Source: Parcubacteria group bacterium Gr01-1014_8 (lineage in GTDB: Bacteria > Patescibacteriota > Minisyncoccia > Phycocordibacterales > UBA2100). From it: a stretch of 64,000 bases of DNA. Within the stretch, counting starts at the first letter, position 1, and every line of letters starts with the position of its first letter. Shown here one piece after another: positions 5,672 to 39,466 of the stretch. Location: assembly GCA_007376385.1 (NCBI GenBank), contig VMGC01000001.1:1-64000 (forward strand), written 5' to 3'. Made by a program: the position numbers and the translations under genes. The notes below the pieces were generated by a model. It had not been told where the DNA came from. It saw nothing but the letters and a program-made list of their open reading frames with translations, and did no database searches.

Positions 5672-7495
5672 CTACTGCCCCAGCAATTGGAGGATCGCTT
5701 TGAGTGCGGATTCGAGTGCGGTGAGGGCGGAGGCGAGTTGGGAATTCTTCGTGGCGGAGGCGGTGCCGCTGGTGACCGTGAACAGAAGCTCGGCGCTCGC
5801 AATTTCGGTATAGCTTGAGTTCAAGAGCCGCACCCAGAGTTTGTGGTTCCCCGGTGGGAGCGATGTGGGAAGCGTATAGGTATATGCTCCCGATGTCGCA
5901 AGGCCGGTCGCAAATGCATGCGATCCGCCGCTCTCCCAACGTATCCAGAGTGCGACTACGGCGCCGCTTGGAGCGTTTGCGCTTGTCCATGCGATGTTCA
6001 GCGTACCTCCGACTGCAACGCTCGTGCCTGTCTGCGGAGAGGTGATGGTGACGGTGGGCCCTGCAGTCGTACCGCTCGTGACCGTGATCGTTGCGGTGGC
6101 GCGGGTGGTTCCGTCAAGGACAAATTTTGCGGTATATGTTCCAGCGGTTGAGTAGATATGGTACTTTCCACCTCGACAATCGGTCAAATTAGAGCAATTC
6201 CCACTATCAACCTTTGTAGTTGAGCCATCACCAAAATCAAGAGTGCCGTTGAAGATGGAAGCTGGGCCAAACACGTAGACTAGCGCGTTTAGTGGTGCTA
6301 TGCCCGATGAGGGAGTTGCAGTGACAGTATAATTTTCCGTGCCAGTGCTCGTCGTACAGTTCGCATACTGATAGTTCGCGTCTCCTGAGAAAGTACCGTT
6401 AGTGCACGTTCGAGATTGCGATATTGATGAGCAGTTGGCATGCGTGCGAGATGAGTAGAAGGGGTGCGACAGGCCGTGTGGTTTCGTGATGCCGTCGAGT
6501 GTGCAGGAAGCTGCGCCTGGAGCACTTGGTACCCATGTACCGTTTTGACAGATGCCGGGGATGCAGTATGCGGTTCCTGTCGGCATTGGAATACAGGAAT
6601 GATGAGATCCATGGGGGTAGGTTTGACCGTTTGCGATGCATGAGTTGTTCGTATCGGTGGTACTTGCAGCTTGCACGATGCAACGTTCGTATTGGTAGCT
6701 TCCGGATAGAGTGCCGTTCGTGCACATGCGGCTTTCCGAGAGACACTGCTGGCCGCTTGATGCTGTTGCGGATTGGTAGGCGGTGATGGACTCGCCGTCT
6801 TTGACTTCTTTGTTGTTGAACCAGCAGGAGGCATTGGTGGTTGTTTGCGGAGTGACTGTGACAGTCGTATTGCACGTTGCGGCGCCTCCTTGTCCCCAGA
6901 AGGCGCCAGTATAAGTGGTGGTCTGCAGCGGAGAGATTGTTCGCGATCCGGAAGTATCCACCGACCCAATCGAGATAATAAGTCCCTGTGTCGCATTTGT
7001 GCTTGACCAGGTGAGCGTCGATGATTGACCGAGGGTGATCGACGAGGGGTTGGCGTTCAGGGTGCACGTGGGAGCTGGGGGAGGATTTGTGGGGGGCGGA
7101 GGTGGCGTAGTCGCGCCGCATGCCTGTTTGATCGCGGCTCTCGTCAAGGGGCCGACTCTGCCGGTTGTGGGGACGTCGTAGTCGCTTTGGAACTGCGTGA
7201 CGTAGTTCTTGGTTTTGTTCCCGAAGAAGCCGGACATCCAGAGGCCGAGCGGGTTATGGAAGTAGTCCATGAGGAAGTGCTGGAGCTGTGAGACCTGGTC
7301 GCCTGTTACGTGGCGGGCGCAGTCGCTATCCGCAATGTTCTCATCGCAGCTGCCATACCACATGTCTTGCGTGAGGGTGGGGCAAAATGGTGTGCCTCCC
7401 GTCTGCGCCGAGGCTACGGTTGGGAGGGAGGCGAGGGTGGGGACTAGGAGAGCGACGAGACCTAAGGAGATAAATAGCTTGCGCATGGGAGCCAT
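5672..7495 (-). CDS. large secreted cell-wall-binding protein: signal peptide, PG_binding_1-like domain, 4-Cys modules, PKD-type module, conserved C-terminal tail ...LTALESALKAILQLLGQ
   Basis: Signal peptide MRKLFISLGLVALLVPTLASLPTVASA. VSQLQHFL ... GFFGNKTKNYVTQFQ ... GRVGPLTRAAI matches the peptidoglycan-binding domain. LDFGDGSTTKVD ... GKYHIYSTAGTYTAKF is PKD-like. Repeated C ... HG ... C ... RxC(T/N)NGT(L/F)SG ... YQYxxC modules. Confidence 0.85.
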   Translation of the reverse strand: MAPMRKLFISLGLVALLVPTLASLPTVASAQTGGTPFCPTLTQDMWYGSCDENIADSDCARHVTGDQVSQLQHFLMDYFHNPLGLWMSGFFGNKTKNYVTQFQSDYDVPTTGRVGPLTRAAIKQACGATTPPPPPTNPPPAPTCTLNANPSSITLGQSSTLTWSSTNATQGLIISIGSVDTSGSRTISPLQTTTYTGAFWGQGGAATCNTTVTVTPQTTTNASCWFNNKEVKDGESITAYQSATASSGQQCLSESRMCTNGTLSGSYQYERCIVQAASTTDTNNSCIANGQTYPHGSHHSCIPMPTGTAYCIPGICQNGTWVPSAPGAASCTLDGITKPHGLSHPFYSSRTHANCSSISQSRTCTNGTFSGDANYQYANCTTSTGTENYTVTATPSSGIAPLNALVYVFGPASIFNGTLDFGDGSTTKVDSGNCSNLTDCRGGKYHIYSTAGTYTAKFVLDGTTRATATITVTSGTTAGPTVTITSPQTGTSVAVGGTLNIAWTSANAPSGAVVALWIRWESGGSHAFATGLATSGAYTYTLPTSLPPGNHKLWVRLLNSSYTEIASAELLFTVTSGTASATKNSQLASALTALESALKAILQLLGQ

Positions 7496-7583
7496 GTTAG
7501 CGGATGCATGTACATGATGACATGCGGTCGCTCTGCCAGTTGACGGATGAGGCCGTGGTGTGGATAGATATTCTCGGCATTAT

Positions 7584-7838
7584 CTACCGATATGCATCTT
7601 TCCTATCTCTAATATGTCGTACCAAAACAACATCATTTTTATGATCAAAAAGAATTCGATAGTCACCGACACGTTTTCGATATCCTTGAAACGGTGGTTT
7701 CAATTTCTTAATGCCTCTCTTTTGCAGCGGAAATTCCAAGAGTTCGCGCAAGCCTTCAGAAATACGATTGCGCATCGCTTGTGACAAGCGTAAGAAATCA
7801 TCCTGGGCTCGCTTATACAATATGACTTTAGAAGCCAT
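7584..7838 (-). CDS. type II toxin, RelE/ParE family
   Basis: 84 aa; C-terminal GDYRILFDHKNDVVLVRHIRDRKDAYR is typical of the RelE/ParE fold. Overlaps the upstream antitoxin gene by 11 nt. Confidence 0.8.
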   Translation of the reverse strand: MASKVILYKRAQDDFLRLSQAMRNRISEGLRELLEFPLQKRGIKKLKPPFQGYRKRVGDYRILFDHKNDVVLVRHIRDRKDAYR

Positions 7839-8067
7839 GTCGCTTTAGGAATTTCTCGAGTTCTACACCACGCTCACCTTTCTGCTTCTCGCGCAATTGC
7901 ATCAGTTCAAGTGCATCTTCTAGATCCTCGAGATCTTCTCTATTAATGATGGTCGCGACCGGAATGCCGCCCTTTTCTAGCGTGATTCGCTCCCCCTTAA
8001 GTACACGCCGGATGACGGAGCCGAGATTCACGCGAGCCTGTGTGATGGGCATAGTTGAAGTGGCCAT
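7828..8067 (-). CDS. type II antitoxin, Phd/YefM-like
   Basis: 79 aa; N-terminal ITQARVNLGSVIRRV is typical of the Phd/YefM antitoxin N-terminus. Acidic C-terminus. Translationally coupled to the RelE-like gene. Confidence 0.7.
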   Translation of the reverse strand: MATSTMPITQARVNLGSVIRRVLKGERITLEKGGIPVATIINREDLEDLEDALELMQLREKQKGERGVELEKFLKRHGF

Positions 8068-8074
8068 AGATTGA

Positions 8075-8115
8075 TCATGATTGATTAATACTCATCAATC
8101 ATATGTGATTGCAAC
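8075..8115. promoter_or_regulatory. putative TA-operon operator: inverted repeat TGATTGAT-N9-ATCAATCA with flanking GATTGAT direct repeats
   Basis: Read directly upstream (minus-strand sense) of the antitoxin start at 8067: gattgatcatgattgattaatactcatcaatcatatgtgattg. Confidence 0.45.
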
Positions 8116-8127
8116 ATAGTGTCAAGC

Positions 8128-8150
8128 ACACTGCTGCAAAAAGTTTTGCA
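8128..8150. promoter_or_regulatory. perfect palindrome TGCTGCAAAAA-G-TTTTTGCAGCA
   Basis: Read directly. Lies immediately 3' of the orphan tail stop at 8157 (minus strand). Shares the GCTGCA-A(n) core with the palindrome at 19112..19139. Confidence 0.5.
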
Positions 8151-8156
8151 GCAAAC

Positions 8157-8437
8157 CTACTGCCCCAACAATTGGAGGATGGATTGCAGGGTGGATTCGA
8201 GTGAGACCGGGGTGGGGCCCGTCGCAAGGCCAGAGCTGTCGAGGCGAGGAGGGTGAGAAGCGAATACGTGGAGCTTCGCAAGACCTTGAGAGGTTTTATT
8301 TGTGCGTACTCGCGAAAATAAAATCCTCAAGGTGTACTGATCCTGTAAGGATCGCGCAAAATCGTAGCAACGATTTATGCGTGACCGGTGAGGGCGCTGG
8401 CGAGTTGTGAACTGTTCGGAGTAAACGCACCAGTACC
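8157..8437 (-). pseudogene. displaced 3' remnant of gene 8438..9988: about 190-nt structured insertion followed by an orphan copy of the conserved tail (...SLESTLQSILQLLGQ*)
   Basis: 8157..8212 is nearly identical at DNA level to the 3' ends of 5672..7495 and 12169..14901. After the TAG at 8438 the same frame reads GTGAFTPNSSQLASALTGHA*, homologous to ...NSQLASALTALES... of the paralogues. The segment 8211..8398 in between has three hairpins. Confidence 0.55.
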
Positions 8438-9925
8438 CTACCCACCTACGCCGGTGACGGTGACAAGTACATACGTGTTCGTTGTGTCCGGAGATACTGG
8501 CGATGGTGCGAGGCTTGCATAGAGCTTGAAAGACTTGAGAGGCATGTCGGTCGGGACCGTGTAATTGAATGAACCTGACGTGGGGGCGGTTGCGGTCAGG
8601 ACATATTGATTGAGGCCGTCTGTCGACACCATGCTCAATCGGACGATTGACCCAGCCGGCGCGTTCTGCCCCTGCCACGAAATACCGATGACACTCCCGC
8701 GAGCGATGCTCGCGCCCGATTGCGGAGACGTGATGGTGATGGCTGGCGCGCTCTCAACGTCAGTGGCAGTGCAGCTCGCGTACTGGTACGAAGTTGCACC
8801 CGAGAGAACGCCGTTATTACACGTACGGTCGATGGAAAAGGTCTGGCACATCGACCAACTCGAGGCCACGCGCTGCTGGTAGAATTTGCGCGTTTGGCCG
8901 TGTGGCACAGTGACTCCATCAAGCGGGCATGAAGCATTTGCGGTCGGGCAGATTAGCTGATCTTGCGCACACGTCGCGCCCGGCTGCCAGTAGCAACCGA
9001 CAGGAGGATTAGCGTGCTCGCAGATCTGCCTCGGTGCGGTGACGGTGATTGTCGCAACGCCGAGATTGTCAACCTGAGAAGAAACTGTTCGTTTCAGTTT
9101 CGCGATGTAGGTTCCGACGGCTGCATACGTGTGCGAGACGGTGTAGACCTGCGGGCACGAGACGCCCTCCGGCGCGCCGCAGCTCAGGAGATGGAGCGGG
9201 CCGGTCGATCCGTCGCCGAAATCCACGTAAAAGGTCGAAGGCGCGGCGTCTCCGGGATTGACGGTAAATGTGACGGCAAGAGGTGCCTCACCGGATGTTG
9301 GAGAAGCACTGAACGAGGGGTTCGAACTGGTTGTAAGAGATGCAACCATAATCGTCGCGCTGCACGTCGCAACTGCTTGATGCCCCCAGAAGGTGCCGGT
9401 GTAGGTCGCGGTCTGTGTCGGATAGATCGTTTGAGAGCCATGAGGTGCGACCGTGCCAATGCCGCTGATCGTGCCATAGTTCGCGTTCGTGCTTGACCAG
9501 GTGAGGAGGGATGATAGGCCGAGGGTGATGGAGGCCGGCGAGACACTCATGGAGCACTGGGAGTTCGTCGGCGATGGGATTGGTACTGGGTACGAAGTTG
9601 CGGTGCTGCTGCAGACTCTCTGGATGGCTTCTCTGGTTTTGGGGCCCACTCTGCCATAGCCATTAGCGGCTTCGCTTCCCGAACAGATGCCCATCTCCCG
9701 GCACTGGAAGGATCGGACGGCTGCGCGGGTGAGATTGCCAAAGTAGCCGGTCGTGTTGCCTGTTGCGAGATCCCTCGTTTCGATGAGGAAGACTTGGAGT
9801 TCCCGGACATCAGAGCCGGACATGCCGATGGAGAGGTTGCGGTAGAGGTTGGGGCAGGTGGCGGCGGAGGTGAGAGCTGGCAGGAGGAGTGCCACGAGAC
9901 CGAGGGAGAGGAGGAGTTTCTGCAT
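8438..9925 (-). CDS. large secreted cell-wall-binding protein (signal peptide, PG_binding_1-like, PKD-type and 4-Cys modules); C-terminal tail truncated by TAG
   Basis: MQKLLLSLGLVALLLPALTSAAT signal peptide. GSDVRELQVFLIE ... GYFGNLTRAAVRSFQ is PG-binding-like. FYVDFGDGSTG ... HTYAAVGTYIAKL is PKD-like. SCPLDGVTVPHGQTRKFY ... CQTFSIDRTCNNGVLSGATSYQYASC is the recurring 4-Cys module. Start probably the Met at 9925 rather than 9988. Confidence 0.8.
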   Translation of the reverse strand: MQKLLLSLGLVALLLPALTSAATCPNLYRNLSIGMSGSDVRELQVFLIETRDLATGNTTGYFGNLTRAAVRSFQCREMGICSGSEAANGYGRVGPKTREAIQRVCSSTATSYPVPIPSPTNSQCSMSVSPASITLGLSSLLTWSSTNANYGTISGIGTVAPHGSQTIYPTQTATYTGTFWGHQAVATCSATIMVASLTTSSNPSFSASPTSGEAPLAVTFTVNPGDAAPSTFYVDFGDGSTGPLHLLSCGAPEGVSCPQVYTVSHTYAAVGTYIAKLKRTVSSQVDNLGVATITVTAPRQICEHANPPVGCYWQPGATCAQDQLICPTANASCPLDGVTVPHGQTRKFYQQRVASSWSMCQTFSIDRTCNNGVLSGATSYQYASCTATDVESAPAITITSPQSGASIARGSVIGISWQGQNAPAGSIVRLSMVSTDGLNQYVLTATAPTSGSFNYTVPTDMPLKSFKLYASLAPSPVSPDTTNTYVLVTVTGVGG

Positions 9926-9988
9926 GTATGGAATGATACGGGAAAAGTGCGGCGGGGTGGTGCGGGGAGTGGGGATAATGACACGCAA

Positions 9989-11110
9989 CTATTGCAAGAG
10001 AAGTGTTGGTGCTGATTTCCGCGTTACGATCGTCGGCAGTGTTCCAGGAAATTCCGAGAGCCATGCGCGTGAATATGGCGCTTCCCCGGCCCACTTGCAC
10101 TCAAACGCGCGCAACGTCCCCTGCGCGTCTTCGACAAGATCTATTTCCGCGCCCGTTTTCGTCCGCCAGTAATACAGTGTGGCGCGATTGTCTTGACGAT
10201 CCAGTTGCTTCACCCGCTCCGCGATGAAGAAATTCTCAAAAAGGTGGCCTTTGTCCGCGCGGTATTCGAGCGGTTTGAAGTCGTCAATGAGCGCGTTCCT
10301 GATGCCCGTGTCATAAAAATATATTTTGTCGAAGCGCGTGACTTCTTTGCGTTTGTTCTTTCCCAAGGGCGGCAGACGAAAAATGACGAACGCCTGCTCC
10401 AAGAGCCGCACATAACCCATCACAGTCTGCCGGCTCACTTCGAGCTGCTGTGCAAGTTCATTGTAGGAGACTTGCTGCCCAACCTGGAGCGCGAGAAGTT
10501 TCACTAGTTTTTCGACCACCATCGGCTTACGGATCGTCTCGATGCGCAGGACATCCCTAAGGAGATAGTCGCGCGCGAGCGAACGCGCCTCGTTCTCCGG
10601 CAGTGGTGCGGCAATGACCGCCGGATATGACCCAAAACGGATGCGCTCTTCCAGGAGTCGCGATGCCTCGATCGTGCCGATCGACGCCGCATATTCCGAG
10701 AATGAGATCGGATGGAGCGTAAACGATTCGTTCCGCCCGGTCAAAGGCTCGCTCACCGAATTTGATAATTCAAACGACGATAATCCAGTGGCAATGATGG
10801 TGAGATCCGGATAGGTGTCGTGCAGGAGTTTCAGCGAAAGGCCGATGTCTGGCACGCGTTGCGCCTCATCCAATACTACAAGCTGCCCGTCCCCGATGAA
10901 CGATTTCATTTCCGTCGAGGTCTTTCTCGTAAGCGCTTCCCGGATATCGGGTTCGTCGCAGTTCAGATACCTGCTTTTGCCCGTGTATCCTGCTAGAATC
11001 TCCTTAACGAGCGTTGTCTTCCCCACTTGTCGGGCACCATACAGGATGATAATTTTGGATTTGCCAAGGACTGACTCAATCTTCGGTTTTAGATACCTAT
11101 TTATATGCAT
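9989..11110 (-). CDS. AAA-family ATPase, DUF4143-type (Walker A GARQVGKTT)
   Basis: 373 aa. N-terminal P-loop LYGARQVGKTTL and a Walker B-like VVLDEAQ. Overall architecture resembles the widespread 'ATPase AAA + DUF4143' family that is often found in mobile or defence neighbourhoods. Confidence 0.7.
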   Translation of the reverse strand: MHINRYLKPKIESVLGKSKIIILYGARQVGKTTLVKEILAGYTGKSRYLNCDEPDIREALTRKTSTEMKSFIGDGQLVVLDEAQRVPDIGLSLKLLHDTYPDLTIIATGLSSFELSNSVSEPLTGRNESFTLHPISFSEYAASIGTIEASRLLEERIRFGSYPAVIAAPLPENEARSLARDYLLRDVLRIETIRKPMVVEKLVKLLALQVGQQVSYNELAQQLEVSRQTVMGYVRLLEQAFVIFRLPPLGKNKRKEVTRFDKIYFYDTGIRNALIDDFKPLEYRADKGHLFENFFIAERVKQLDRQDNRATLYYWRTKTGAEIDLVEDAQGTLRAFECKWAGEAPYSRAWLSEFPGTLPTIVTRKSAPTLLLQ

Positions 11111-11162
11111 ACTTGCTTTTATGACGCTATATTAGCAAGTATACTGGCGATTGTCAATACTT

Positions 11163-11459
11163 CTACTGCCCCAGCAATTTCAGGATGGATTGCAATGCCG
11201 ATTCGAGTGCGGTGAGGGAGTTGGCGAAAGGCTTCTGCCTCATTGTTCCTGACACTTTATTGGCGTGCAATACCCCGTGGAGTCGGTACTCCGACCCTCG
11301 GGGATGCACACCAAACCCGAATGGGCGGTGGCCCATTCCTATTCCAACACAAAATTCGCGGGAAACCACCGTGGCGTTTTTGCTCGAAGATGAGCGCCCA
11401 CCGGGCGCACTCATTTGAAAGGGCGGCGATTCATCCCCGCTAGCCTGGCTGCGGGGCAT
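11163..11459 (-). pseudogene. orphan copy of the conserved C-terminal tail (...FANSLTALESALQSILKLLGQ*) with unrelated upstream sequence
   Basis: Last 22 codons and about 70 nt match the 3' ends of 5672..7495 and 12169..14901. Upstream residues have no similarity to those genes. Sits between the AAA ATPase and the HepT/MntA pair. Confidence 0.5.
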
Positions 11460-11494
11460 TCTCGCCGTCCAACGAGTAAACGGGCAGCTCGTCT

Positions 11495-11845
11495 TTACTT
11501 TGAGACAGCGAGATACGCCGAAATCTTGTCTTGAACCATGGGCACGTCATCTTTGATGACCCGCCACACTTCTTTGAGTTTGAGACCGAAATATTGATGG
11601 ATGGCCACGTCGCGCAACCCAGCGATTTGTTTCCATGGCACATCGATCGCGGAGCGTGCAACCTGCGATACATTCTTCGCCAACTCGCCGATAACAATGA
11701 GTTGCATGATTATCGCACTCTGCGTCTTCGCATCTGCGTAGAATTCCTCCTCGGAGATGGCGCCTAAGAATTCGGTTACCTTTCCGCAGGCCTGCCGGGT
11801 CAGCTCAAGTGTAATCGAATCATCCTTCATAAATCGTCCGAGCAT
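11495..11845 (-). CDS. hepT: HepT-like toxin (DUF86/HEPN) of a HepT/MntA pair
   Basis: R-x4-H-x-Y motif in RDVAIHQYFGL. Pairs with the upstream minimal nucleotidyltransferase gene. The ORF extends to 11899, but the start probably lies at an internal Met so that overlap with mntA is small. Confidence 0.7.
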   Translation of the reverse strand: MLGRFMKDDSITLELTRQACGKVTEFLGAISEEEFYADAKTQSAIIMQLIVIGELAKNVSQVARSAIDVPWKQIAGLRDVAIHQYFGLKLKEVWRVIKDDVPMVQDKISAYLAVSK

Positions 11846-12113
11846 CTGAATAAATCGCCTCTCGCAGAAGCGGATGTACGGCATCCTCCGTAACGACATC
11901 GACGGGAAGCTGCAGTTCTTCGCTCAAATCCTGCTGCAGGCCGACATGGTCGAGAAGCGAAAACGGCGCGTCTCCATAATCGATGAGAACATCAACGTCG
12001 CTTCCTTCGCGATAATCGCCGCGAGCCCGCGAACCATACAGCTGGGCGCGTTTGATGTTCCATTTTTTGAAGATAGGCTTGGTTTTCTCTGCGAGCGCGC
12101 GTAGGTCATCCAT
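11820..12113 (-). CDS. mntA: minimal nucleotidyltransferase antitoxin (MntA-like)
   Basis: 97 aa; LYGSRARGDYREGSDVDVLID is the GS-x(9-10)-DxD nucleotidyltransferase signature. Confidence 0.75.
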   Translation of the reverse strand: MDDLRALAEKTKPIFKKWNIKRAQLYGSRARGDYREGSDVDVLIDYGDAPFSLLDHVGLQQDLSEELQLPVDVVTEDAVHPLLREAIYSDARTIYEG

Positions 12114-12168
12114 GCTGAAATCCTACCACAAGTGGCCGCTTGAGTGCACGCGCATTTTCTACTCCTTC

Positions 12169-14877
12169 CTACCGTCCCAAGAGTTGCAGGATCGCTTTGA
12201 GCGCAGATTCGAGTGCGGTGAGGGAGTTGGCGAGCTGTGTGTGGTTTTGTGCCGCTGCGGTCGGGGCAGTCACGGTGACCGTGATCGTCTCGTGAGGATC
12301 GTAGGTAAAGCCACCAAAAGTATGAACTGTATATGTGCCAGGGCTTGTGTAGATGTGATCCACCAGATAATACGGGTAGCTAGAATCTGTCCCAGGGTAC
12401 GGCGGAGAATATGGCGGCGTGCCATCACCGAAATCGATTGAGGGAAAGACACCCCCGCTATTTGGCGAGTGCGGAACAAGTAGATGTACTGTGAGGGGCG
12501 CGGATCCAGATGAAGGTACAGCGTTGAGACTATTCAGAACATCGCTGCAGTACGCATACCTATAAGCTGCATTGCCCGAGAGCGTGCCGTTTGTACAGGT
12601 TCGCGACAACGACGAACCAGTAGTGGAACAATTTCCCCAACGATTCGAGTAGAAGATGCGACTCTGACCATTTTGAATAGTAACTCCATCGAGGGTGCAC
12701 GAACTGCCATCGGGTGGTGGGGGCGGATACACTTTCACAATGTAATTCTGCACGCTCCAGCCGTCGATCGTGCTGTTGTCCCAGTCGATCTTCCACCACG
12801 TGAAGCCGTTCGCGCTCTGCGGGCCGTCAATGATGGTTCCCTCTGCCCCTGTCGGCTGTGCGTCGAGGATGGCGCCGCTTGTGGAGGGTGTCGCACGGAC
12901 GTTCACGGCGTCGGTCGCCCGCACCCGATCGCCGATTGCGAATGGGGGTGGGGTGGTGCCGCCAGTTACGTTGACTGCCGCAGTCGCCGTCTCATACCCG
13001 CCGTTCGCTAGGAGTTTGGCGGTGTAGCTTCCGGGAGTGGTATACGTGTGCACGATAGTGCCCGAACAGGGGCCGGTACCGGTACACGATTTCTCCGCTG
13101 CGGTGATCTGATGAATGGGCGTACCGTCACCAAAATTGATACGGAACGCTAAGAGCGTCTGGGTAACGGTAAATGCAAGATTGGTAGCGAGAGGCGCGGG
13201 ACCGGAACTGGGAGTTGCGGTGAGGGTGTTTTGGTTGGTGTGAGGGGCGGTGATGGCTACCGTTGCGCGGACGACGCCGCCAATGAGGAGACGAACAGTG
13301 TATGTTCCGGAGGCGGTATATGCATGACCCCCCGTCGCATACCCGGCGCACATCCCATTGTTGTTGCAGTTTTGGGGCGTGACGGTTCCGTACGGCGATC
13401 CGTCGCCCCAGTCGACCTGGCCCTGGAAAATATCGTTTGGTCCTTTCACGCCAAGCCCGAAGCTGTAAGGCAGTCCGGCAGCGGGAGTGGGGATGAGGGA
13501 ATATGTGTTCGTATTCGACACTTTCGCGATGTAATTCTGCACGCTCCAGCCGTCGATCGGGCTGTTGTCCCAATTTATCTTCCACCAGGTGTAGCTGTTC
13601 GCGCTTTGCGGGCCGTCAATGATGGTTCCCTCCGCTCCTGTCGGTTGTGCGCCGAGGATGGTGCCGCTCGTCGAGGGTGTCGCACGGACGTTGACGGCAT
13701 CGGTCGCCCGCACCCTGTCGCCGACTGCGAATGGGGGTGGAGTGCCGGCGGCGGTGATCGTAAAAGGGATGTTCGTTTGGGCAAGCACTTGATAATTAGG
13801 CATCCGCAACGTGGCATAAATGCCTCCATTGCCTGCTAATAAATACAACTCCGTAGGAGTCCAAACATATGAGCCACTCAGCGGCTGAATTCCCCCGATA
13901 CCATACATCGGGGCACCGTAGGGACCCCACGAAAGGATGACCTGGGCGTTTGCGGGTGCATTCTGCGATTGCCAGGAAATGGTGACGGGATTATTTACTT
14001 GGACCGATGATCCCGACGGTGGCGCGGTGATGGTGATGGAGGGAGAAGTGTTCCCCTCTGGCCATGTGCAGGCTGCGTATTGGTACGAGGTCGCGCCCGA
14101 GAGGACGCCATTATTACACGTGCGGTCGATGGAATTCGTCTGGCATTGGGAGGAAGAAACTTCGTCGCGGTGCAGATAGAATTTACGCGTAGCTCCGTGC
14201 GCCACCGTGACCCCATCGAGCGTACAGGAGGTGCCTGACGTAAGCGGCGAAGTGACAGATATTGAGACTGAAGCCACAGTGGCACCAGCTGTCGTCCGCA
14301 GCGAGGCCGTGTAGGTCCCTGCCGACGCGTAGGTGTGGGGAAATTCGCACCCTCCTCCCGTGTAGCACTCGGGATGCAAATCTTGGGACGCGCCGTCGCC
14401 AAAATAGACTCGATACGTGTTGCCGGTTCCGGAGAACGTGAACGTCACCGCGAGGGGGACAACGCCGGATGTCGGCGAGGCAGAAAACGTCGGAGTCTGT
14501 AACGTTTGCGTATGACACGTAAACCGCGGGCCGATGGTGTAGGGGCCGAGCGGGTTTGAGGCGTTGTTGCTGTGCACCCACCAGGCATACTCCTGGTTCG
14601 GCGAAATGGGGAGGGTGATCGTTGTTTCTCCGCGAGTACTGACGGCATGGACAAAATCCGCGTTCCCCGGAATATTAACGCGAACGCTGTAGTAGGTGGC
14701 GTTCGCGGCCGGCGACCACGAGAGCGTCACCTCATCGCCCGCAGCGTTGCAAATGGCCTGAAGATTTTGCGGCGCGGCGAGTGCATCTGGCCCCCAGGGG
14801 GTTGATGACAGCTGCGCGGACGCGAGCGCGGGAGCGAGAACGAGTGCGAAGCCGAATGCCGCGAATAGTTTCTTCAT
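12169..14877 (-). CDS. large secreted protein: FN3-like, several PKD-type modules, two SH3b domains, 4-Cys modules, conserved C-terminal tail ...LTALESALKAILQLLGR
   Basis: Signal peptide MKKLFAAFGFALVLAPALASA. Near-identical internal duplicates GDRVRATDAVNVRATPSTSG(T/A)IL(G/D)AQPTGAEGTIIDGPQSAN ... WWKI(N/D)WDNS are SH3b-like. YRVYFGDGASQ ... HTYASAGTYTASL, VDWGDGSPYG, INFGDGTPI ... HTYTTPGSYTAKL and SIDFGDGTPP are PKD signatures. Confidence 0.85.
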   Translation of the reverse strand: MKKLFAAFGFALVLAPALASAQLSSTPWGPDALAAPQNLQAICNAAGDEVTLSWSPAANATYYSVRVNIPGNADFVHAVSTRGETTITLPISPNQEYAWWVHSNNASNPLGPYTIGPRFTCHTQTLQTPTFSASPTSGVVPLAVTFTFSGTGNTYRVYFGDGASQDLHPECYTGGGCEFPHTYASAGTYTASLRTTAGATVASVSISVTSPLTSGTSCTLDGVTVAHGATRKFYLHRDEVSSSQCQTNSIDRTCNNGVLSGATSYQYAACTWPEGNTSPSITITAPPSGSSVQVNNPVTISWQSQNAPANAQVILSWGPYGAPMYGIGGIQPLSGSYVWTPTELYLLAGNGGIYATLRMPNYQVLAQTNIPFTITAAGTPPPFAVGDRVRATDAVNVRATPSTSGTILGAQPTGAEGTIIDGPQSANSYTWWKINWDNSPIDGWSVQNYIAKVSNTNTYSLIPTPAAGLPYSFGLGVKGPNDIFQGQVDWGDGSPYGTVTPQNCNNNGMCAGYATGGHAYTASGTYTVRLLIGGVVRATVAITAPHTNQNTLTATPSSGPAPLATNLAFTVTQTLLAFRINFGDGTPIHQITAAEKSCTGTGPCSGTIVHTYTTPGSYTAKLLANGGYETATAAVNVTGGTTPPPFAIGDRVRATDAVNVRATPSTSGAILDAQPTGAEGTIIDGPQSANGFTWWKIDWDNSTIDGWSVQNYIVKVYPPPPPDGSSCTLDGVTIQNGQSRIFYSNRWGNCSTTGSSLSRTCTNGTLSGNAAYRYAYCSDVLNSLNAVPSSGSAPLTVHLLVPHSPNSGGVFPSIDFGDGTPPYSPPYPGTDSSYPYYLVDHIYTSPGTYTVHTFGGFTYDPHETITVTVTAPTAAAQNHTQLANSLTALESALKAILQLLGR

Positions 14878-14969
14878 GCGCGAGATGTTACGAATATGCA
14901 TACATCATGCCATGCGGCCGGCGCTTCGCGCCGGCCGCTTTGCACACCCATGTGGATAGCGAAATTGCG

Positions 14970-15362
14970 TCACGAATGCATCCGATCTGCTACCGAATGC
15001 AACACAAGGGCGTATTCTTCACGAACGCGAACCAGAAGTTTGCTCGCATATTCTTCCCCATAATCGTGTACCATCCTGTTCCGGTCATCGATGATCGCAA
15101 GCAGCACTTCCCCCTCATCCTCGCTCACGAGAGATGCAGCAGACGCCGAGCGTACGACGTCTTTGGGTAACGCCACGTCAGCACCGCGTTCCGCCAAGAT
15201 GCGCTGCAATACTTTCGGCATCAACTCGGCCGCGAGTTCAAATCGCAAAAGGACTGCGTCGCGCTCGGCGTTTTCGGGCAAAGGTTTAAGCGCAAGCGCT
15301 TTTTCCAAAGCCTCTACCGCTTTTCCGAAGCGATGTGTTGTCCTCTTCGCTATGGTATCCAT
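14970..15362 (-). CDS. HEPN-domain protein (nucleotidyltransferase substrate-binding, HI0074-like) - toxin of a HEPN/MNT pair
   Basis: 130 aa, all-helical. R-x4-H motif in DDRNRMVHDY. Overlaps the upstream MNT gene by 13 nt. Confidence 0.65.
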   Translation of the reverse strand: MDTIAKRTTHRFGKAVEALEKALALKPLPENAERDAVLLRFELAAELMPKVLQRILAERGADVALPKDVVRSASAASLVSEDEGEVLLAIIDDRNRMVHDYGEEYASKLLVRVREEYALVLHSVADRMHS

Positions 15363-15679
15363 ACGACGGATTCGTTCTGCAAGACAAAATCACGGAAATC
15401 GGCGTCTGCGGCATCGAGATCGACAACGTCCACTTTGTACGGGATGGGTGAATCATAGAAACGGTCACGCAATTCCGAGAGTTTTTTTTGCGACCTCCCG
15501 TTCCCCACGACGCCGAGATCAATGTCATGAAATTTTTCTTTCCGAACCGAAGAGCCGAAGAGGAAATAACGGTTTGAACCTTGCGGGTCAAACTTCTTAA
15601 CGATGTCTCTCACTTGATTTTCATACCGCAGCTTCGTCATGTGGAAATCATAGCACAACGCGCAGGGCTTCAGGATCAA
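15350..15679 (-). CDS. minimal nucleotidyltransferase (HI0073-like) - antitoxin of a HEPN/MNT pair
   Basis: 109 aa; YFLFGSSVRKEKFHDIDLGVV carries the G(S/G) ... DxD nucleotidyltransferase motif. Confidence 0.7.
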   Translation of the reverse strand: MILKPCALCYDFHMTKLRYENQVRDIVKKFDPQGSNRYFLFGSSVRKEKFHDIDLGVVGNGRSQKKLSELRDRFYDSPIPYKVDVVDLDAADADFRDFVLQNESVVWIP

Positions 15680-15747
15680 GGTGGATTGCCCTCACTCTCG
15701 CTGATTGTGGAGAGTGGCAATGGTGCAAGCTGGTACGTGCAACGGGT

Positions 15748-18700
15748 TCACCCGCCGCACTTGAAAGCTGTGCCGGAGGTATAGGGCCCAAGCACAGCAG
15801 GATCAAAGTTGGCGTGCACCCACCAATTGTACGTCTTCCCCGCGACGACATTCGTCGAGTACGTGGCGACGAGGATGCCGTTGTCTTCGCGATAGAACAC
15901 CGATGAACCCGGCTCGATGAGGCGGACGTGGTAGTGGATGGCGCCGGGCATCGCATCCCACGTGAGCGTCACGTGCGTGCTGTCGGTGCAGGTCGCTTGC
16001 AAATTGGTCGGCGCCACCGCCGGTGCGACGCAGGTAAACGCGGTGCCCATCGTGTAGTCGCCGAGCGTTCCTACTGCCGGATTCGCGTGCACCCACCACG
16101 AGTAGTTCGTCCCCGGCACGACGGATGCGGTGAAGGTCGTCCCCTGGAACCACTCCTCGATCTTGTGGAATATTTGCGATCCCACTTGGATGATGCGGAT
16201 CCCGTAATTCGCGGCACCCGGAGACGCATTCCAGGAGAGCGTGACTTCATCCCCTGCGGGCTTGCACGACGCTTGGAGGCCCGTCGGCGCGGGGACGCTG
16301 ATAACCGCGCAGTCTTTGTATTGGTACTGGTTGTCTCCGCTCCAGATGCCCTTGGAGCACGTCCGCACCTGCGAAACAGCCGTGCAGGTATTCGGCGCTT
16401 GCACGGTTTTTGCGGAATAGAAGGTGTACGATTCGCCGTTCTGCTTCGTGACACCGTCAAGCGTGCATGACTGGTCCACCGGCGCAGAAAGTTGTTTCGA
16501 CATGCGACGTATCTCTTTGTACTGGAAATCGTATGGCGTGCCTCCCTTCTGGCATCCGGTCGTCACATAGATGGTGCCGTCATAATAGTACGCTTCGGGC
16601 ACGTGGTTTGCGGCGCAGCCGGACTCGGCGTCAACGTATCCTTGCGTCGTCCAGTGGATGCCATCCGGCGAGGTCGCCTCGGTTATCTTGCGCGCCTGCC
16701 ACGGATCCTGGGTCGCCTGGTCATACTGCTGTGGAGGGTCGCCGTAGGCGTAGTAGGTGCTGTTTACCTTGATGACATCAGGGTTCGGGAATGCGTACAT
16801 CTGCGGGTTGTCGCCGACGTTCACGCCCGTGAAGGTGCCGGCAAGGAACGCCGATTGGGTCGGGCTTGCAAGCGGCAGCTCCGCGTATCCCATCACGAGG
16901 CCTCCCGTTGTGTTCCAATAGTCGAACCACATCCTGAATTTCCCATTCTCGTACATCAAGGATGGACGGTGATACATGTTGCCGTTCAGGTTGTCCTGTT
17001 TCCCCGCTTCGGTCGGCGACACGAAGTACGGCTTCGTCGCCTTCTGCCAGTGGATGCCGTCGGTCGAGACCGCTGCCATGATCCCCTGGAAATCCTGGTC
17101 GGTGTCTCCCGCCTGGCCGGATGCTTTCCCATCGAGGTCGTTTCCGGTTGCGCTGTAGACCATGTAGTAATCGGCGCCGATTTTCACGACCGACGGGTCG
17201 CCGTTGTGTACCCCATCGTAGTACGTGCTTCCAGCGGTGATGACGGGCTTCCAGAGCGATGCCGTCATCGTCGTATCGTATTGCGGCGTGCCGCCTGAAT
17301 CCCCCTTATACACCTGCCACGAGAGGCCGTTTGCGGAACGCGCATAGAATATCGCATCGCACGGCGTGCCGGGCGTGAAGCCGCCGGGGTTATTGCACGT
17401 GTACGCCGCCCATCCCATAAACCACATCTTGTACGGGTAGCTGGCGTCGGAAACGTCACGGATGATGTGCCCATTGTACAGGTTGAGGAAATTACTCAAG
17501 AGGGTCGTCCCCCGATTCCACTGTGAGGTGACGTTGTTGAGCGTGATGCCGGATGGTATTGACGCCGATTGCACCGAGACTATCGCCGAGCACTGCGCCG
17601 TCCCTCCCGCACCCGTCACGCTTGCCGTGTATGTCTTCGTCGCCGTGATGTTGGTGATCTGCTTTGTTCCATTCACGGGTACCGCGCCGATGCCTTGGTC
17701 GATCGTTGCGCTCGTCGCATTTTGGGATGAGAGGGTGAGTACGGACGAGCCGCCCGGTTGCACGGATTCCGGATTTGCCTTAAGCGTGCACGTCGGCGCT
17801 TGCGTCTGTACTTGCTCACACGATGCGTACTGGTATAGCGAAGAGCCGCTAAGAGTCCCATCCGTACACGTGCGCGATTGCGATACGACACTGCACGTAT
17901 TCGGCGCTTGCACGGTTTTTGCAGAATAGAAGGTGCGCGACTGGCCATGGAGGACGGTAACGCCGTCGAGCGTGCACGAGTCGGTGCCGCTCGTTATCTT
18001 CTGGAGATAGTTTTCAGCAGACCAGCCTGTCACTCCCGGCAAGAAGCCACTCCCATCCCACTTCACCTGCCACCAAGTGTAGCCGTCGGCGCTCTGCGGG
18101 CCGTTCGTAACGACACCCGTTGTGCCTCTCAGTGCCTTGCCGACGATTGACGCTCCGAGGGAGGGCGCCTCGCGGACGTTGAGCGTGTCGGTTGCCTTGA
18201 CCTTGTCACCAATAGAGAATTTTCCCGCGCTCTGCACGCTGCAGCTCGGGTATTGGTAGCTGCCGGAGAGCGTGCCGTTGTTGCAGGTGCGCGTTTGCGA
18301 AACGCATTGTCCTCCGGCGGGAACTGATGATGATTGATATGCGGTGACGGTTCCTCCGTGCAAAATAGTTTGGCCGTTGAACGTGCATGACTGATTCCCC
18401 GGCGTCTGCACCGCAACCGTCGCAGAGCACGCCGCGCTCCCTCCCGCGCCCGTCACTGTCGCTGTGTATGTTTTGGTCGTTGTGATGTTGGTGACGTTCG
18501 TCGTGCCGTTCACCGCGACGGCGCCGACGCCTTGGTCTATGGTTGCGCTCGTCGCGTTTTGCGAGGTGAGCGTCAAGATCGAACTGCCGCCAGGTTGTAC
18601 AGACTCCGGATTTGCCTTCAGTGTACACGAAGGAGCCGTACCGGTTGAGATTTTCTGGAGATAGTCCTCCACGGACCAGCCGGTCGCTCCTGGCAAGAAA

Positions 18701-19068
18701 CCGGAACCGTCCCACTTCACTTGCCACCAGGTGTAACCGTCGGCACTTTGTGGACCAGAGGCAACGGCGCCCATCATGCCTTTCAATGCGACGCCGACGA
18801 TATCCCCTTCGAGGGAAGGCATCGAACGGACGTTGAGGTTGTCCGTTGCTTTGACGCGATCTCCCACTACGAATTTCGACGCTCCAGACGCGGCAGCCAC
18901 CATGCTGTCCGCACCTTGCGAAGCGATGATCTGCGATATTTGCTGATAGAGCGCCTGGACGCGGGAGAGGAGCTGGGCTATTTCTGATTCTTGGTTTGTG
19001 CCAAGGGCGAGAGTAGAGAACGGAAAAGCGAGAACAATGAAGCCGATTATGAGGGATTTTTTAAGCAT
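15748..19068 (-). CDS. giant (1106 aa) secreted multidomain protein: two SH3b domains, 4-Cys modules, Ig-like repeats, GH43/GH32-like beta-propeller region, FN3-like C-terminal repeats
   Basis: Signal peptide MLKKSLIIGFIVLAFPFSTLALG. GD(R/K)VKATD(N/T)LNVR ... GPQSADGYTWWQVKWDGSGFLPG is SH3b, twice. GDPSVVKIGADYYMVYSATGND ... DGIHW resembles the five-bladed propeller glycosidases. PAPTGLQASCKPAGDEVTLSWNASPGAANY and APTNLQATCTDSTHVTLTWDAMPGAIHY are FN3-like. Confidence 0.85.
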   Translation of the reverse strand: MLKKSLIIGFIVLAFPFSTLALGTNQESEIAQLLSRVQALYQQISQIIASQGADSMVAAASGASKFVVGDRVKATDNLNVRSMPSLEGDIVGVALKGMMGAVASGPQSADGYTWWQVKWDGSGFLPGATGWSVEDYLQKISTGTAPSCTLKANPESVQPGGSSILTLTSQNATSATIDQGVGAVAVNGTTNVTNITTTKTYTATVTGAGGSAACSATVAVQTPGNQSCTFNGQTILHGGTVTAYQSSSVPAGGQCVSQTRTCNNGTLSGSYQYPSCSVQSAGKFSIGDKVKATDTLNVREAPSLGASIVGKALRGTTGVVTNGPQSADGYTWWQVKWDGSGFLPGVTGWSAENYLQKITSGTDSCTLDGVTVLHGQSRTFYSAKTVQAPNTCSVVSQSRTCTDGTLSGSSLYQYASCEQVQTQAPTCTLKANPESVQPGGSSVLTLSSQNATSATIDQGIGAVPVNGTKQITNITATKTYTASVTGAGGTAQCSAIVSVQSASIPSGITLNNVTSQWNRGTTLLSNFLNLYNGHIIRDVSDASYPYKMWFMGWAAYTCNNPGGFTPGTPCDAIFYARSANGLSWQVYKGDSGGTPQYDTTMTASLWKPVITAGSTYYDGVHNGDPSVVKIGADYYMVYSATGNDLDGKASGQAGDTDQDFQGIMAAVSTDGIHWQKATKPYFVSPTEAGKQDNLNGNMYHRPSLMYENGKFRMWFDYWNTTGGLVMGYAELPLASPTQSAFLAGTFTGVNVGDNPQMYAFPNPDVIKVNSTYYAYGDPPQQYDQATQDPWQARKITEATSPDGIHWTTQGYVDAESGCAANHVPEAYYYDGTIYVTTGCQKGGTPYDFQYKEIRRMSKQLSAPVDQSCTLDGVTKQNGESYTFYSAKTVQAPNTCTAVSQVRTCSKGIWSGDNQYQYKDCAVISVPAPTGLQASCKPAGDEVTLSWNASPGAANYGIRIIQVGSQIFHKIEEWFQGTTFTASVVPGTNYSWWVHANPAVGTLGDYTMGTAFTCVAPAVAPTNLQATCTDSTHVTLTWDAMPGAIHYHVRLIEPGSSVFYREDNGILVATYSTNVVAGKTYNWWVHANFDPAVLGPYTSGTAFKCGG

Positions 19069-19111
19069 GCGGGGGAGTGAATCAATAATGCAATAAGTAT
19101 GCCATCCAGCC

Positions 19112-37221: not shown

Positions 37222-37920
37222 CTAGAAGTATTGATTACACTGCGGTGTCGGGAGCGGAAGACTTTGGACGCACATCCCTGTGTACCATGTTGCTGGTCCA
37301 CCTGGATATGAACGCTGGTATCCGCTGCATCCATGCGTCTGCCAGATCTTACAGTTATACGGCATGTTAGAAGGGTCCGAAGATGACGTTTGCGTCGGTG
37401 CTCCCGCCGGGCAATATGAAGTACACAACCACTGACCTCCCTTGCATTGAAATACAGGCAAAACCGCTGTCCTGTTTGGGCAAATCCCCGATGGAAGACA
37501 CAAACTCACGCCAGTCGAGGCTGTCCAGCCACCTTCTGACGTCATCCCTTCAGCGTATATCTGACCATTATATGTACAGGATGCGCCGGTTGTTGTTTGC
37601 GTTGTTGTCGTTGACGGCTTGCAGGCATAACCAGTCACACAGTTGTACGAGTCGTACGAGACTGTGAGCGCTGTTGAACACGATGGTGGCATGACCAGAG
37701 TGCACCTGTGCGTCTGTGCAACTTGCTTTTGCAGGTTAGCTATCTGCGTTTGCAATTTTGTTATCTCCTGTGTCAATTTCAAGACGAGATCTTTTTGCAA
37801 TTGTATTATCTGCTGGAATAGCGCGATTATCTGCGATTGCAGGTCGGTACTCTCGGCAGCTGACACCATGGGAGCAATGAGAAGGAAGCAAATGCCGATC
37901 GCCGTTAGAAGCTTCGCCAT
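37222..37920 (-). CDS. secreted protein with long heptad/coiled-coil segment and Cys-rich C-terminal half
   Basis: Signal peptide MAKLLTAIGICFLLIAPMVSA. LQSQIIALFQQIIQLQKDLVLKLTQEITKLQTQIANLQKQ, then 12 cysteines. Confidence 0.6.
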   Translation of the reverse strand: MAKLLTAIGICFLLIAPMVSAAESTDLQSQIIALFQQIIQLQKDLVLKLTQEITKLQTQIANLQKQVAQTHRCTLVMPPSCSTALTVSYDSYNCVTGYACKPSTTTTQTTTGASCTYNGQIYAEGMTSEGGWTASTGVSLCLPSGICPNRTAVLPVFQCKGGQWLCTSYCPAGAPTQTSSSDPSNMPYNCKIWQTHGCSGYQRSYPGGPATWYTGMCVQSLPLPTPQCNQYF

Positions 37921-37927
37921 AATTCTG

Positions 37928-39466
37928 CTACGGCGTAATGTTGATATCTTGAGGCGGATAGTAAACACCCGTCACGGTTGGCGGCGTAGCAAGGAGAACA
38001 ATAACATTTCCATATATGTCTGTGGTGAACCACCTGCCCTCGCGGCACATGTACAAATGCTCTGTTTGGAATTGATTTGCGCCCGAGTATGCCCTCTGCC
38101 CATTCGTGAAGACGATCCCATTGGCGCTCACGCAGAGCGAGCCCGTGCCGTACGGAACGTATCCATACTGACTGTCCGAACTCCACATGCCATTTTGACA
38201 GGTGAGTGTCACCGATGATGATCCTGTCAAAAGAGCGCATATATTTTCGTTTGGGAAGTCCCGACATGTCTTACCGTTCCCCCCGGAGGGATACGCAGAG
38301 TCGAACAGATTTGGACCCGGCGGAAGCGTGTACGATTGCCCATTGCCGTACACAGTGCCGTTTATCACACACGAATTTACGTCTCCCGTAAGATACCCTG
38401 AACCGATCGAGGGAATGGCGACCCACGTTCCGCCCATGCACTGCAAGAATGGATAACTTGTGCATGAAGAGCTTGATGATGCAGCGCACGCTGGACTTGC
38501 GGTCACTTCCCCATCAGGGTACGTCTTGCTGTTCAGTTTGCATGAACTCCCTCCGATCCCGATATTCGTAAGGTCCGGATCATTCACCTGAACAGAAAGT
38601 GTCGCGGTCGTATCTGCACCACTCGCGTCTTTGGCAAAAACCACGATCGTGAATTTTCCGGTTGAACTATACGCGTGCGAATAGGAGACGGCTGAGCTGT
38701 ATGGTGTGCCCTCGCGAGAGATGTTCAATAACTGGGAAAGAGAAGAACCCTCATCTCCCCACACAACGCTAAAATTAACCACGTTTCCTTCAGGATCGCT
38801 CCCGCTGACCCTCCATGTATTGCTTTTGTTGATGTCAACGGTTGTGGGACCGACAACGGAAGAAATAATAGGAGGCTTGTTGATGGGCGTTACTGTCGTG
38901 TCGACTGCCGACACACAGGTCCATCCTACATGGCAACCCTTCGGGTCATTGTTCTTTTCCCATGTACCTGTACACGTCAACACTGGCTGCGGTGGCGGTG
39001 TGAGGCACTGATTGCTCGGAGGGGGAGGACGCGTACAGTATGTGCTTATCACATACTGGAACGTTCGAGCTCCAAACACGCCGCCATCCGCCGCCTGTGA
39101 AATAATCCCCACTTTCAGCTGAAATTGAATAAGTCCATTCTCTGTTATTGGCCCGAAAAACCCCGTGATGTCTACACTGAAATATCCCTGACTTTTCAGA
39201 AATAGCTGCAACGCTTCAACATCGCCACCGCTATCGCCGCGTTTCAATGGAAATCGTGATATCGAACAAATAACATTCCCGCCAGCGGGCGGTGCAACCT
39301 CTGTGCTTCCCCCTGCTGCGGCAATTTTTGCTTGCAGCTGTGCGATTTGGGCAAGAAGCACTTCTATCTGCGCTTTTACCTCATCAGCAGTGAGTGCGCT
39401 TGAGATAACTGGAACCAAGATAAGCCCCGCGAGAGATGCGCACAAAGCGCGCTTGAAAGTGCTCAT
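37928..39466 (-). CDS. secreted cell-wall-binding protein (signal peptide, alanine-zipper, PG_binding_1-like, PKD-type module, Cys-rich modules)
   Basis: MSTFKRALCASLAGLILVPVISSA. QIEVLLAQIAQLQAKIAAAGG. GDSGGDVEALQLFLKSQGYF ... GFFGPITENGLIQFQ. VVWGDEGSS ... HAYSSTGKFTIVV. Confidence 0.8.
   Translation of the reverse strand: MSTFKRALCASLAGLILVPVISSALTADEVKAQIEVLLAQIAQLQAKIAAAGGSTEVAPPAGGNVICSISRFPLKRGDSGGDVEALQLFLKSQGYFSVDITGFFGPITENGLIQFQLKVGIISQAADGGVFGARTFQYVISTYCTRPPPPSNQCLTPPPQPVLTCTGTWEKNNDPKGCHVGWTCVSAVDTTVTPINKPPIISSVVGPTTVDINKSNTWRVSGSDPEGNVVNFSVVWGDEGSSLSQLLNISREGTPYSSAVSYSHAYSSTGKFTIVVFAKDASGADTTATLSVQVNDPDLTNIGIGGSSCKLNSKTYPDGEVTASPACAASSSSSCTSYPFLQCMGGTWVAIPSIGSGYLTGDVNSCVINGTVYGNGQSYTLPPGPNLFDSAYPSGGNGKTCRDFPNENICALLTGSSSVTLTCQNGMWSSDSQYGYVPYGTGSLCVSANGIVFTNGQRAYSGANQFQTEHLYMCREGRWFTTDIYGNVIVLLATPPTVTGVYYPPQDINITP

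Follow-up and report, generated by a model that had tools for sequence, protein, structure and literature searches.

Background

Fibronectin type I (FnI) modules (Pfam PF00039, fn1; SCOP fold g.27) occur in fibronectin, tissue plasminogen activator (tPA) and factor XII. They follow the cysteine pattern C1...C2-x-C3...C4 with 1-3 and 2-4 disulfides, and their fold consists of a two-stranded and a three-stranded antiparallel sheet. The same cysteine pairing, 1-3 and 2-4, is found in complement control protein (CCP) modules. The FnI-like fold has been listed as specific to Metazoa (PMC9541633). Here we describe a four-cysteine module of about 50 residues that recurs in large secreted proteins encoded at positions 5672-19068 of a 64,000-nucleotide (nt) stretch of DNA from Parcubacteria group bacterium Gr01-1014_8 (GenBank assembly GCA_007376385.1, contig VMGC01000001.1, positions 1 to 64,000 of the forward strand; hereafter the window). 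The module had been singled out in an earlier inspection of the window, referred to below as the original prediction. It is a genuine autonomous extracytoplasmic domain of ~50-55 residues that lies outside Pfam, NCBIfam and solved structures, and it belongs to a large, apparently unnamed family of a familiar kind, that of small extracellular disulfide-rich beta domains arranged as beads on a string.

Results and discussion

Eight copies of the module in four secreted proteins

Eight full copies of the module, each 49-53 amino acids (aa) long, were found in the window. All are encoded on the minus strand and belong to four secreted multidomain proteins, designated A to D. The same eight were returned by a loose regular expression (regex) of the pattern and by two hidden Markov models (HMMs), of which HMM A1 was built from the window copies and HMM A2 is an 80-sequence profile of mostly external copies. 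Searched against a six-frame translation of the whole window, HMM A1 matched the eight copies with independent E-values (i-E) of 1e-22 to 3e-31 and nothing else significantly; HMM A2 recovered them at 1e-18 to 5e-24. The coordinates of all copies were confirmed by translation.

Protein A (607 aa; 5672..7495, minus strand, as are the genes of all four proteins) contains copy A1 at 6680..6826 (aa 224-272; CWFNNKEVKDGESITAYQSATASSGQQCLSESRMCTNGTLSGSYQYERC; matched by the regex; i-E 4.6e-24 with HMM A1 and 1.1e-18 with HMM A2) and copy A2 at 6356..6505 (aa 331-380; HMM i-E 2.2e-26). Between them, at 6524..6640 (aa 286-324), lies a shortened variant (CIANGQTYPHGSHHSCIPMPTGTAYCIPGICQNGTWVPS; i-E 0.56) in which the four cysteines are differently spaced and the C-terminal cysteine is absent. 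Protein B, from an open reading frame (ORF) of 516 aa at 8438..9988, carries copy B at 8771..8929 (aa 354-406; HMM i-E 2.7e-31). Copies C1 at 14068..14226 (aa 226-278; 7.8e-29) and C2 at 12547..12699 (aa 735-785; 1.2e-22) are located in protein C (910 aa; 12169..14901), and protein D (1106 aa; 15748..19068) has copies D1 at 18241..18387 (aa 228-276; 2.6e-23), D2 at 17818..17976 (aa 365-417; 2.2e-29) and D3 at 16309..16467 (aa 868-920; 6e-29).

The original prediction of a four-cysteine module repeated across 5672-19068 was right about the module, which stands far beyond chance by regex, both HMMs and shuffled sequences; some of its counts were too high. The single copy proposed for protein B and the two proposed for protein C were recovered, and the two example sequences that it quoted are both exact. 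Where at least three copies had been claimed for protein A, two are full and the third is only the shortened variant, and the four claimed for protein D were reduced to three. A fourth copy in protein D was sought with two HMMs and by cysteine positions and was not found; the remaining cysteines of this ORF lie in the two-cysteine beta-sandwich-like module described below, in a glycosidase-like region and in fn3-like domains.

The pattern might instead be an artefact of composition or low complexity in secreted proteins that abound in Ser, Thr and Gly, or the result of a recent local duplication in this genome only; S, T, G, A and N are indeed abundant in the host proteins, which also have further internal duplications. 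However, a strict regex gave six matches in the real proteins and none in 2,000 shuffles, and the eight copies are 37-77% identical in pairwise comparison yet keep 14 invariant columns. Together with the thousands of homologues in unrelated phyla and the confident AlphaFold2 model presented below, these results exclude such an explanation.

Family size, conservation and array geometry

When 1.84 billion cluster representatives were scanned with HMMER and the window profile, 3,056 matched at E<=1e-3; of these, 1,695 reached E<=1e-10 and 572 reached E<=1e-30. A single protein contained as many as 43 matched stretches. The size of the family was visible only in this exhaustive scan, as word-indexed homologue searches gave five matches with A1 and none with A2.

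Conservation was assessed in 1,207 copies taken from the 155 best matches, for which the consensus reads a-S-C-(T/L)-F-N-G-q-T-v-a-H-G-q-S-v-t-A-Y-q-s-s-S-V-p-y-G-s-s-C-(0-2)-v-S-Q-t-R-t-C-(t/n)-N-G-t-L-S-G-(0-2)-s-Y-t-y-a-S-C. Nearly all of these copies (99-100%) have C2 and C3, and every absence of C1 or C4 coincides with truncation of the local alignment; because the four cysteines are essentially never lost, an analysis of cysteine co-loss was uninformative about disulfide pairing. Arg38 (93%), Gly43 (97%) and Gly47 (93%) are also conserved, as are Gly8, Gly14, Tyr/Phe20, Gly28, Asn/Asp42 and Leu45. Conservation thus falls mostly on cysteines, on glycines in turns and on aromatic core residues, a pattern expected of a scaffold, and the intervening positions vary freely from copy to copy. 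The N-terminal motif reads C-T-L-D-G-V-T in proteins of the candidate phyla radiation (CPR), including those of the window, C-x-F-N-G-Q-T in Bdellovibrionota and C-x-x-P-W-G-G in Alphaproteobacteria and Planctomycetes.

Successive HMM envelopes are most often 2 residues apart (662 of ~1,040 gaps), corresponding to linkers of ~4-6 residues from C4 to the next C1. Among the 155 top matches the module makes up a median of 61% of the protein length, and about half of the top matches have a lipobox-like N-terminus. In Bdellovibrionota lipoproteins, 10-15 modules follow each other head to tail, and up to ~40 occur in one metagenomic protein.

Search for a named family

The module was searched in Pfam-A, NCBIfam 20.0 and PDB sequences. 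Pfam-A gave no match over the module in the host proteins, or at E<=10 in the eight isolated copies or 80 diverse copies, except for sub-threshold Sushi_2 matches in two of the 80 diverse copies (best E 7e-4). NCBIfam 20.0 returned no family at E<=10, and profile searches of PDB sequences returned nothing relevant. In precomputed annotation from a newer Pfam version, no family is assigned to the array-only homologues P0081, P0171, P0128 and P0135. RefSeq labels members such as WP_015469866.1 (Pseudobdellovibrio exovorus JSS) and WP_221067171.1 (Methylomagnum ishizawai) 'hypothetical protein', and literature searches yielded no description of the four-cysteine module. The claim that the module fits no nameable family was therefore upheld, in that no significant Pfam match was found.

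Long arrays of other organisms were likewise without a Pfam family, although weak signals were seen in individual homologues. A TSP1_CCN (PF19035) assignment of protein P0007 was rejected: its 39 bits are the sum of ~40 sub-threshold fragments, and no single repeat passes the HMM. In P0011, an array of 12 copies, FnI_RECK scored 22.7 bits in sum, under the cut-off of 30, with the signal lying over the N-terminal hairpin.

Predicted fold and comparison with FnI, CCP and VWC modules

AlphaFold2, given an alignment of the eight window copies only, modelled copy A1 as all-beta with a mean predicted local distance difference test score (pLDDT) of 94.2 and with strands at residues 3-6, 9-12, 16-20 and 33-39 plus short bridges. 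The predicted fold is a small all-beta unit in which an N-terminal hairpin packs against a second sheet. The shortened copy of protein A (residues 283-326) was modelled independently with a pLDDT of 83 and had the same FnI structural neighbours as the full module, so that the two are plausibly related at the level of the predicted fold. FnI modules were the best structural neighbours of both models; in a Foldseek search against the PDB nothing was significant, with no match better than E 0.7. C1 lies in strand 1 and C3 at the end of strand 4, which, by analogy with FnI and CCP, suggests that the four cysteines probably form two disulfides, C1-C3 and C2-C4.

On these models the module would be FnI-like in architecture and, more loosely, Sushi/CCP- and VWC-like; by sequence it is a member of neither fn1 nor Sushi. 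Like FnI, it has four cysteines within ~40-50 residues, is predicted to be all-beta with an N-terminal hairpin preceding a second sheet, forms head-to-tail beads in extracellular multidomain proteins, and carries a similar first-hairpin motif, C-x-x-(N/D)-G-x-x-(aromatic or aliphatic)-x-x-G. Unlike FnI, it has an extra loop of ~10 residues between strand 3 and C2, and no sequence relationship is detectable. No fn1 match was obtained at E<=10 for the eight window copies and the 80 diverse copies, or at E<=1 for the host proteins, and hhalign comparison of the HMM A2 profile (80 copies) with human fibronectin FnI modules 1-5 gave a probability of 0.1%.

With Sushi/CCP/SCR modules (PF00084; Sushi_2, PF09014) it shares four cysteines at a similar overall spacing, arrays of the beads-on-a-string type and a C-x-x-G-x-(W/L)-S element between C3 and C4. 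It differs from them in being shorter (~52 versus ~60 aa), in lacking a hairpin between C2 and C3, in its lower structural scores compared with FnI, and at the position of the invariant CCP Trp, which is Leu in 83% of the copies, Phe in 6% and Trp in 5%. No match to Sushi PF00084 or VWC PF00093 was found in Pfam, and hhalign against factor H CCP1-7 gave probabilities of 0.05-0.4%. The FnI sequences used in the hhalign comparisons were 100% identical to PDB chains, and the CCP sequences likewise apart from the known Y402H position. The VWC/chordin-like domain (PF00093; in CCN3, collagen IIA and NELL) resembles the module in its N-terminal subdomain, which has an FnI-like beta-hairpin architecture; it contains ten cysteines and a second subdomain, whereas the module has four cysteines in ~52 residues.

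Instead of being a convergent independent family, the module might be genuinely, if very distantly, homologous to metazoan FnI or Sushi/CCP, through common ancestry or horizontal transfer. The structural neighbours of the two independent models, the shared cysteine count, module size and head-to-tail arrays, the cumulative FnI_RECK signal of P0011 and the two Sushi_2 matches would all fit such a relationship. Small disulfide-rich beta folds converge easily, however, and the hhalign probabilities stay below 1% for all five FnI and seven CCP modules. The lack of fn1, Sushi or VWC matches in Pfam, a C2-C3 spacing that differs from that of FnI and the prevalence of Leu at the CCP Trp position point the same way, and we regard homology as very unlikely. 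If the predicted fold is confirmed, a small FnI-like disulfide fold would occur in bacteria and archaea, in contradiction to its listing as Metazoa-specific (PMC9541633).

Organisms that carry the module

Carriers were surveyed by scanning a single genome of each GTDB species for the peptide pattern RTC[TN]NGTLS, taken from an 8-sequence alignment (A3) of CPR and Bdellovibrio copies, a choice that biases the taxonomic picture towards copies of these two types. The scan yielded 101 confirmed relatives, of which the best 80 loci were assigned to taxa from their record titles. Patescibacteria/CPR (Kaiser-, Sacchari-, Paceibacterota, Minisyncoccia, Gracili-, Peri-, Falkow- and Moranii-) account for 34 of these 80 loci and Bdellovibrionota for 19, followed by Alphaproteobacteria (7, including Micavibrio, Mesorhizobium and Hyphomonas), other Proteobacteria (5), Myxococcales/'Deltaproteobacteria' (3), metagenome-assembled genomes (MAGs) of Bacteroidota (3), DPANN-type archaeal MAGs (2, Iainarchaeum and an uncultured archaeon) and Gemmataceae (1); 6 are unclassified. 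Of the best 80 loci, 79 had HMM-confirmed copies, at most 12 in a 6-kb locus. The ORFs that hold the archaeal, Micavibrio and Gemmataceae copies have signal-peptide-like or pilin-like N-termini. Arrays were also found on two plasmids of cultured free-living Gammaproteobacteria, Allochromatium tepidum and Methylomagnum ishizawai. A phage receptor-binding origin of the module was dropped, since searches of viral contigs and GenBank phages gave no relatives.

The skew of the carriers towards episymbionts and predators is suggestive and serves only as a lead, given that CPR and Bdellovibrio copies were the source of the search pattern. In a broader reading, the FnI-like finger fold would have arisen outside Metazoa and would be a large, ancient or widely transferred prokaryotic family and a surface-attachment module common to CPR/DPANN episymbionts and to Bdellovibrionota, Micavibrio and myxobacterial predators, its arrays making contact with host or prey envelopes. 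We consider this quite unlikely.

Host proteins, partner domains and probable module shuffling

All four host proteins begin with a hydrophobic signal-peptide-like segment, as read from their sequences. In protein A this is followed by PG_binding_1, a two-cysteine beta-sandwich-like module, a full, a shortened and a second full copy of the four-cysteine module, a PKD-like region, Big_7/Kre9_KNH and a conserved C-terminal helix. Protein B, whose true start is likely an internal Met at aa 22, consists of the signal peptide, PG_binding_1, the two-cysteine module, PKD, the module and Big_7, and its 3' end is decayed, with an in-frame TAG and a split tail. The order in protein C is signal peptide, fn3-like, PKD, module, Kre9_KNH, SH3_3, two PKD domains, SH3_3, module, PKD and the C-terminal helix. 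Protein D, which is identical to database protein P0120, comprises the signal peptide, SH3_3, the two-cysteine module, the module, SH3_3, the module, the two-cysteine module, the glycosidase-like region, the module and two fn3 domains. The four-cysteine module is thus flanked in the window by PKD, SH3_3, Big_7/Kre9_KNH, fn3 and PG_binding_1 domains. Elsewhere its partners include SASA esterase, sulfatase, BNR_2, BNR/sortilin propellers, GH43-like, LCCL, laminin-G and DUF285 domains, and it stands behind pilin-like N-termini in P0138 and in the Gemmataceae locus (L079).

Paralogy between the genes at the DNA level ends at the borders of the module, with 74% identity between 8769-8925 and 14066-14222 and 76% between 16358-16470 and 17867-17979. 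Copies B and C1 are 77% identical in aa and 74% in nt, a similarity limited to the module, and copies D3 and D2 share 68% of their aa. DNA similarity that stops at module borders is what would be expected if the module is duplicated and shuffled in one piece. The original prediction of a mobile extracellular module, shuffled together with PKD and SH3b units, agrees with these borders, with the signal-peptide-like N-termini and flanking domains, and with the differing partners found elsewhere.

Proposed role of the module

We propose, with a probability of roughly 60%, that the module is a disulfide-stapled structural bead from which stalks or arrays are built in surface-anchored or secreted proteins, and that it may join in adhesion. 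It would work as a rigid, protease-resistant bead. In CPR proteins such as those of the window, single beads are scattered among PKD, SH3b, Ig-like and fn3 domains, flanked by a peptidoglycan-binding anchor at the N-terminus and the conserved helix at the C-terminus, and in Bdellovibrionota they form strings; in both settings the stalk would project enzymatic or binding domains away from the cell surface. The beads may add to adhesion, for example by beta-strand addition as in FnI modules. The family and its conservation, the secretion of its members, the geometry of the arrays, the partner domains and the predicted fold are shown by the data above, and from them we infer disulfide pairing, rigidity and a spacer or adhesion function.

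Several points weigh against this proposal. Fold and role are predicted, and the disulfide pairing is assigned by analogy only. The C2-C3 spacing is 6-8 residues, compared with C-x-C in FnI. The family may already be named in CDD, ECOD, TED or InterPro member databases beyond Pfam and NCBIfam. Finally, a ligand site could just as well be made up of the strongly conserved His13, Tyr20, Arg38, Asn42 and Tyr51/53, in which case binding would be favoured over a passive spacer.

These aromatic and polar residues are also part of the case for a module that is primarily ligand-binding (lectin-like or similar to a carbohydrate-binding module (CBM), or binding peptidoglycan or glycans), which would target the attached enzymes or the cell to polysaccharides of the host, the prey or its own wall, with arrays providing avidity. 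Carbohydrate-active or wall-directed partners are frequent (PG_binding_1, SASA esterase, sulfatase, BNR_2, GH43-like, laminin-G and LCCL), and lineages living attached to other cells are overrepresented among its carriers. The invariant positions, however, are mostly turn glycines and cysteines, and the rest are free to vary within an array, which is more typical of a scaffold than of a pocket. A primary role in ligand binding, the main rival, therefore appears unlikely, and a structural bead is the reading that we prefer.

For a structural bead or otherwise, the module reveals no new mechanism or system. At present, 'hypothetical' or 'peptidoglycan-binding protein' is the only annotation given to thousands of large proteins secreted by CPR/Patescibacteria and Bdellovibrionota. 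A formal definition of the family, for which a new entry in Pfam would be straightforward, would lead to better annotation of the surface proteome of attached, mostly unculturable organisms and supply domain boundaries for structural and binding studies. The presence of the module also implies that its carrier lineages, CPR included, would depend on extracytoplasmic disulfide formation for major surface proteins.

Cysteine-rich units at 37222-39466

Reduced forms of the module had also been proposed in 37222-39466. By sequence they are insignificant, the best i-E being 0.0037 with HMM A1 and 0.13 with HMM A2, and the proposal was not sustained. The ORF at 37928-39466 contains three heterogeneous cysteine-rich units at 38018..38542 (minus strand; i-E 0.0037-2.5 with HMM A1 and 0.13 with HMM A2), which have in common the motifs C-x-x-N-G-x-x-Y-x-x-G and, further on, C-x-x-G-x-W. 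A single unit, CTYNGQIYAEG...CKGGQWLC, lies at 37420..37578 (minus strand; HMM i-E 1.5) in the ORF at 37222-37968. With hhalign, the reduced units aligned to the family profile over its first 15 columns only, the first hairpin, with a probability of 54%. The units at 38018-38542 may plausibly be related to the module. The unit motifs of the two ORFs are closer to the FnI consensus than are those of the main module. The regions 37222-39466, 20169-23219 and 42514-45761 encode further secreted proteins with PG_binding_1 and PKD domains that do not contain the full module.

C-terminal tails and a second recurring module

Proteins A and C end in a conserved amphipathic tail, QLA(S/N)xLTALESALKAILQLLG(Q/R)* (5675-5740 and 12172-12237, minus strand), which is also found in many CPR homologues (P0003, P0008, P0009, P0013, P0026, P0078 and P0116). 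In protein B the tail is broken: past an in-frame TAG at 8438-8440, the region 8157-8437 (minus strand) holds the first half and, beyond ~215 nt of unrelated sequence, the second half in another frame. An orphan remnant of the tail, FANSLTALESALQSILKLLGQ*, is located at ~11163-11230 (minus strand), after the nucleotidyltransferase (MNT)/HEPN pair downstream of ORF C. The tail may act as a signal for sorting, anchoring or oligomerisation at the C-terminus, and its coding sequence may be a hot spot for recombination or insertion. Pieces of the sequence that splits the tail of protein B (8204-8400) are 93-100% identical over 35-44 nt to other CPR MAGs, in L003 at 2158-2192 (Minisyncoccia) and in L006 at 795-838 (Kaiserbacteria); the L006 piece lies ~55 nt from a homologue of window position 11209, adjoining an AAA_14/DUF4143 gene. 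This sequence could be a small mobile or structured element, and an Rfam search of the insert splitting the 3' end of ORF 8438-9988 gave no match at E<=0.01.

A second recurring module of ~65 aa with two bounding cysteines, C-T-L-x-A-N-P-x-S-(I/V)...T-Y-T-...-C, occurs at 6872-7066 in protein A, at 9362-9556 in protein B and twice in protein D, at 18427-18627 and 17590-17790 (all minus strand), as well as in the distant homologues P0010 and P0110. It looks like a beta-sandwich, and no Pfam match was found for it at E<0.01.

Other features of the window

A secreted protein of 645 aa encoded at 3225-5162 (minus strand) contains about nine repeats of a different cysteine-rich unit, GPGGC-x-G-x-(E/A)C-x-x-YCE-x-x-x-H-x-EEC-x-x-FA-x-ENGF-(M/I)-S-x-E-(D/E)-AERA-x-K, followed by a tail rich in Pro, Gly and Met; Pfam gave only spurious sub-threshold matches for this protein. 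A type IV pilus-like cluster at 51116-56939 (minus strand) encodes a PilB-like T2SSE ATPase, a PilC-like T2SSF protein, a pilin with an N_methyl motif and a 734-aa CarboxypepD_reg protein, and the window also encodes ComEC and RecJ. The EF-G and AAA_14/DUF4143 genes of the window show 75-77% DNA identity to CPR MAGs labelled Saccharibacteria, Parcubacteria and Kaiserbacteria, and the closest named protein relatives are from Kaiserbacteria. The window also matches part of a metagenome contig of 102 kb (ENA ERZ27284378 k139_153431). MNT and HEPN toxin-antitoxin-like pairs are situated directly downstream of genes C (~11240-12160, minus strand) and D (~15100-15740, minus strand). Just upstream of the start of ORF D, a blastn self-match revealed a 42-nt near-perfect inverted repeat (95%) at 19103-19144.

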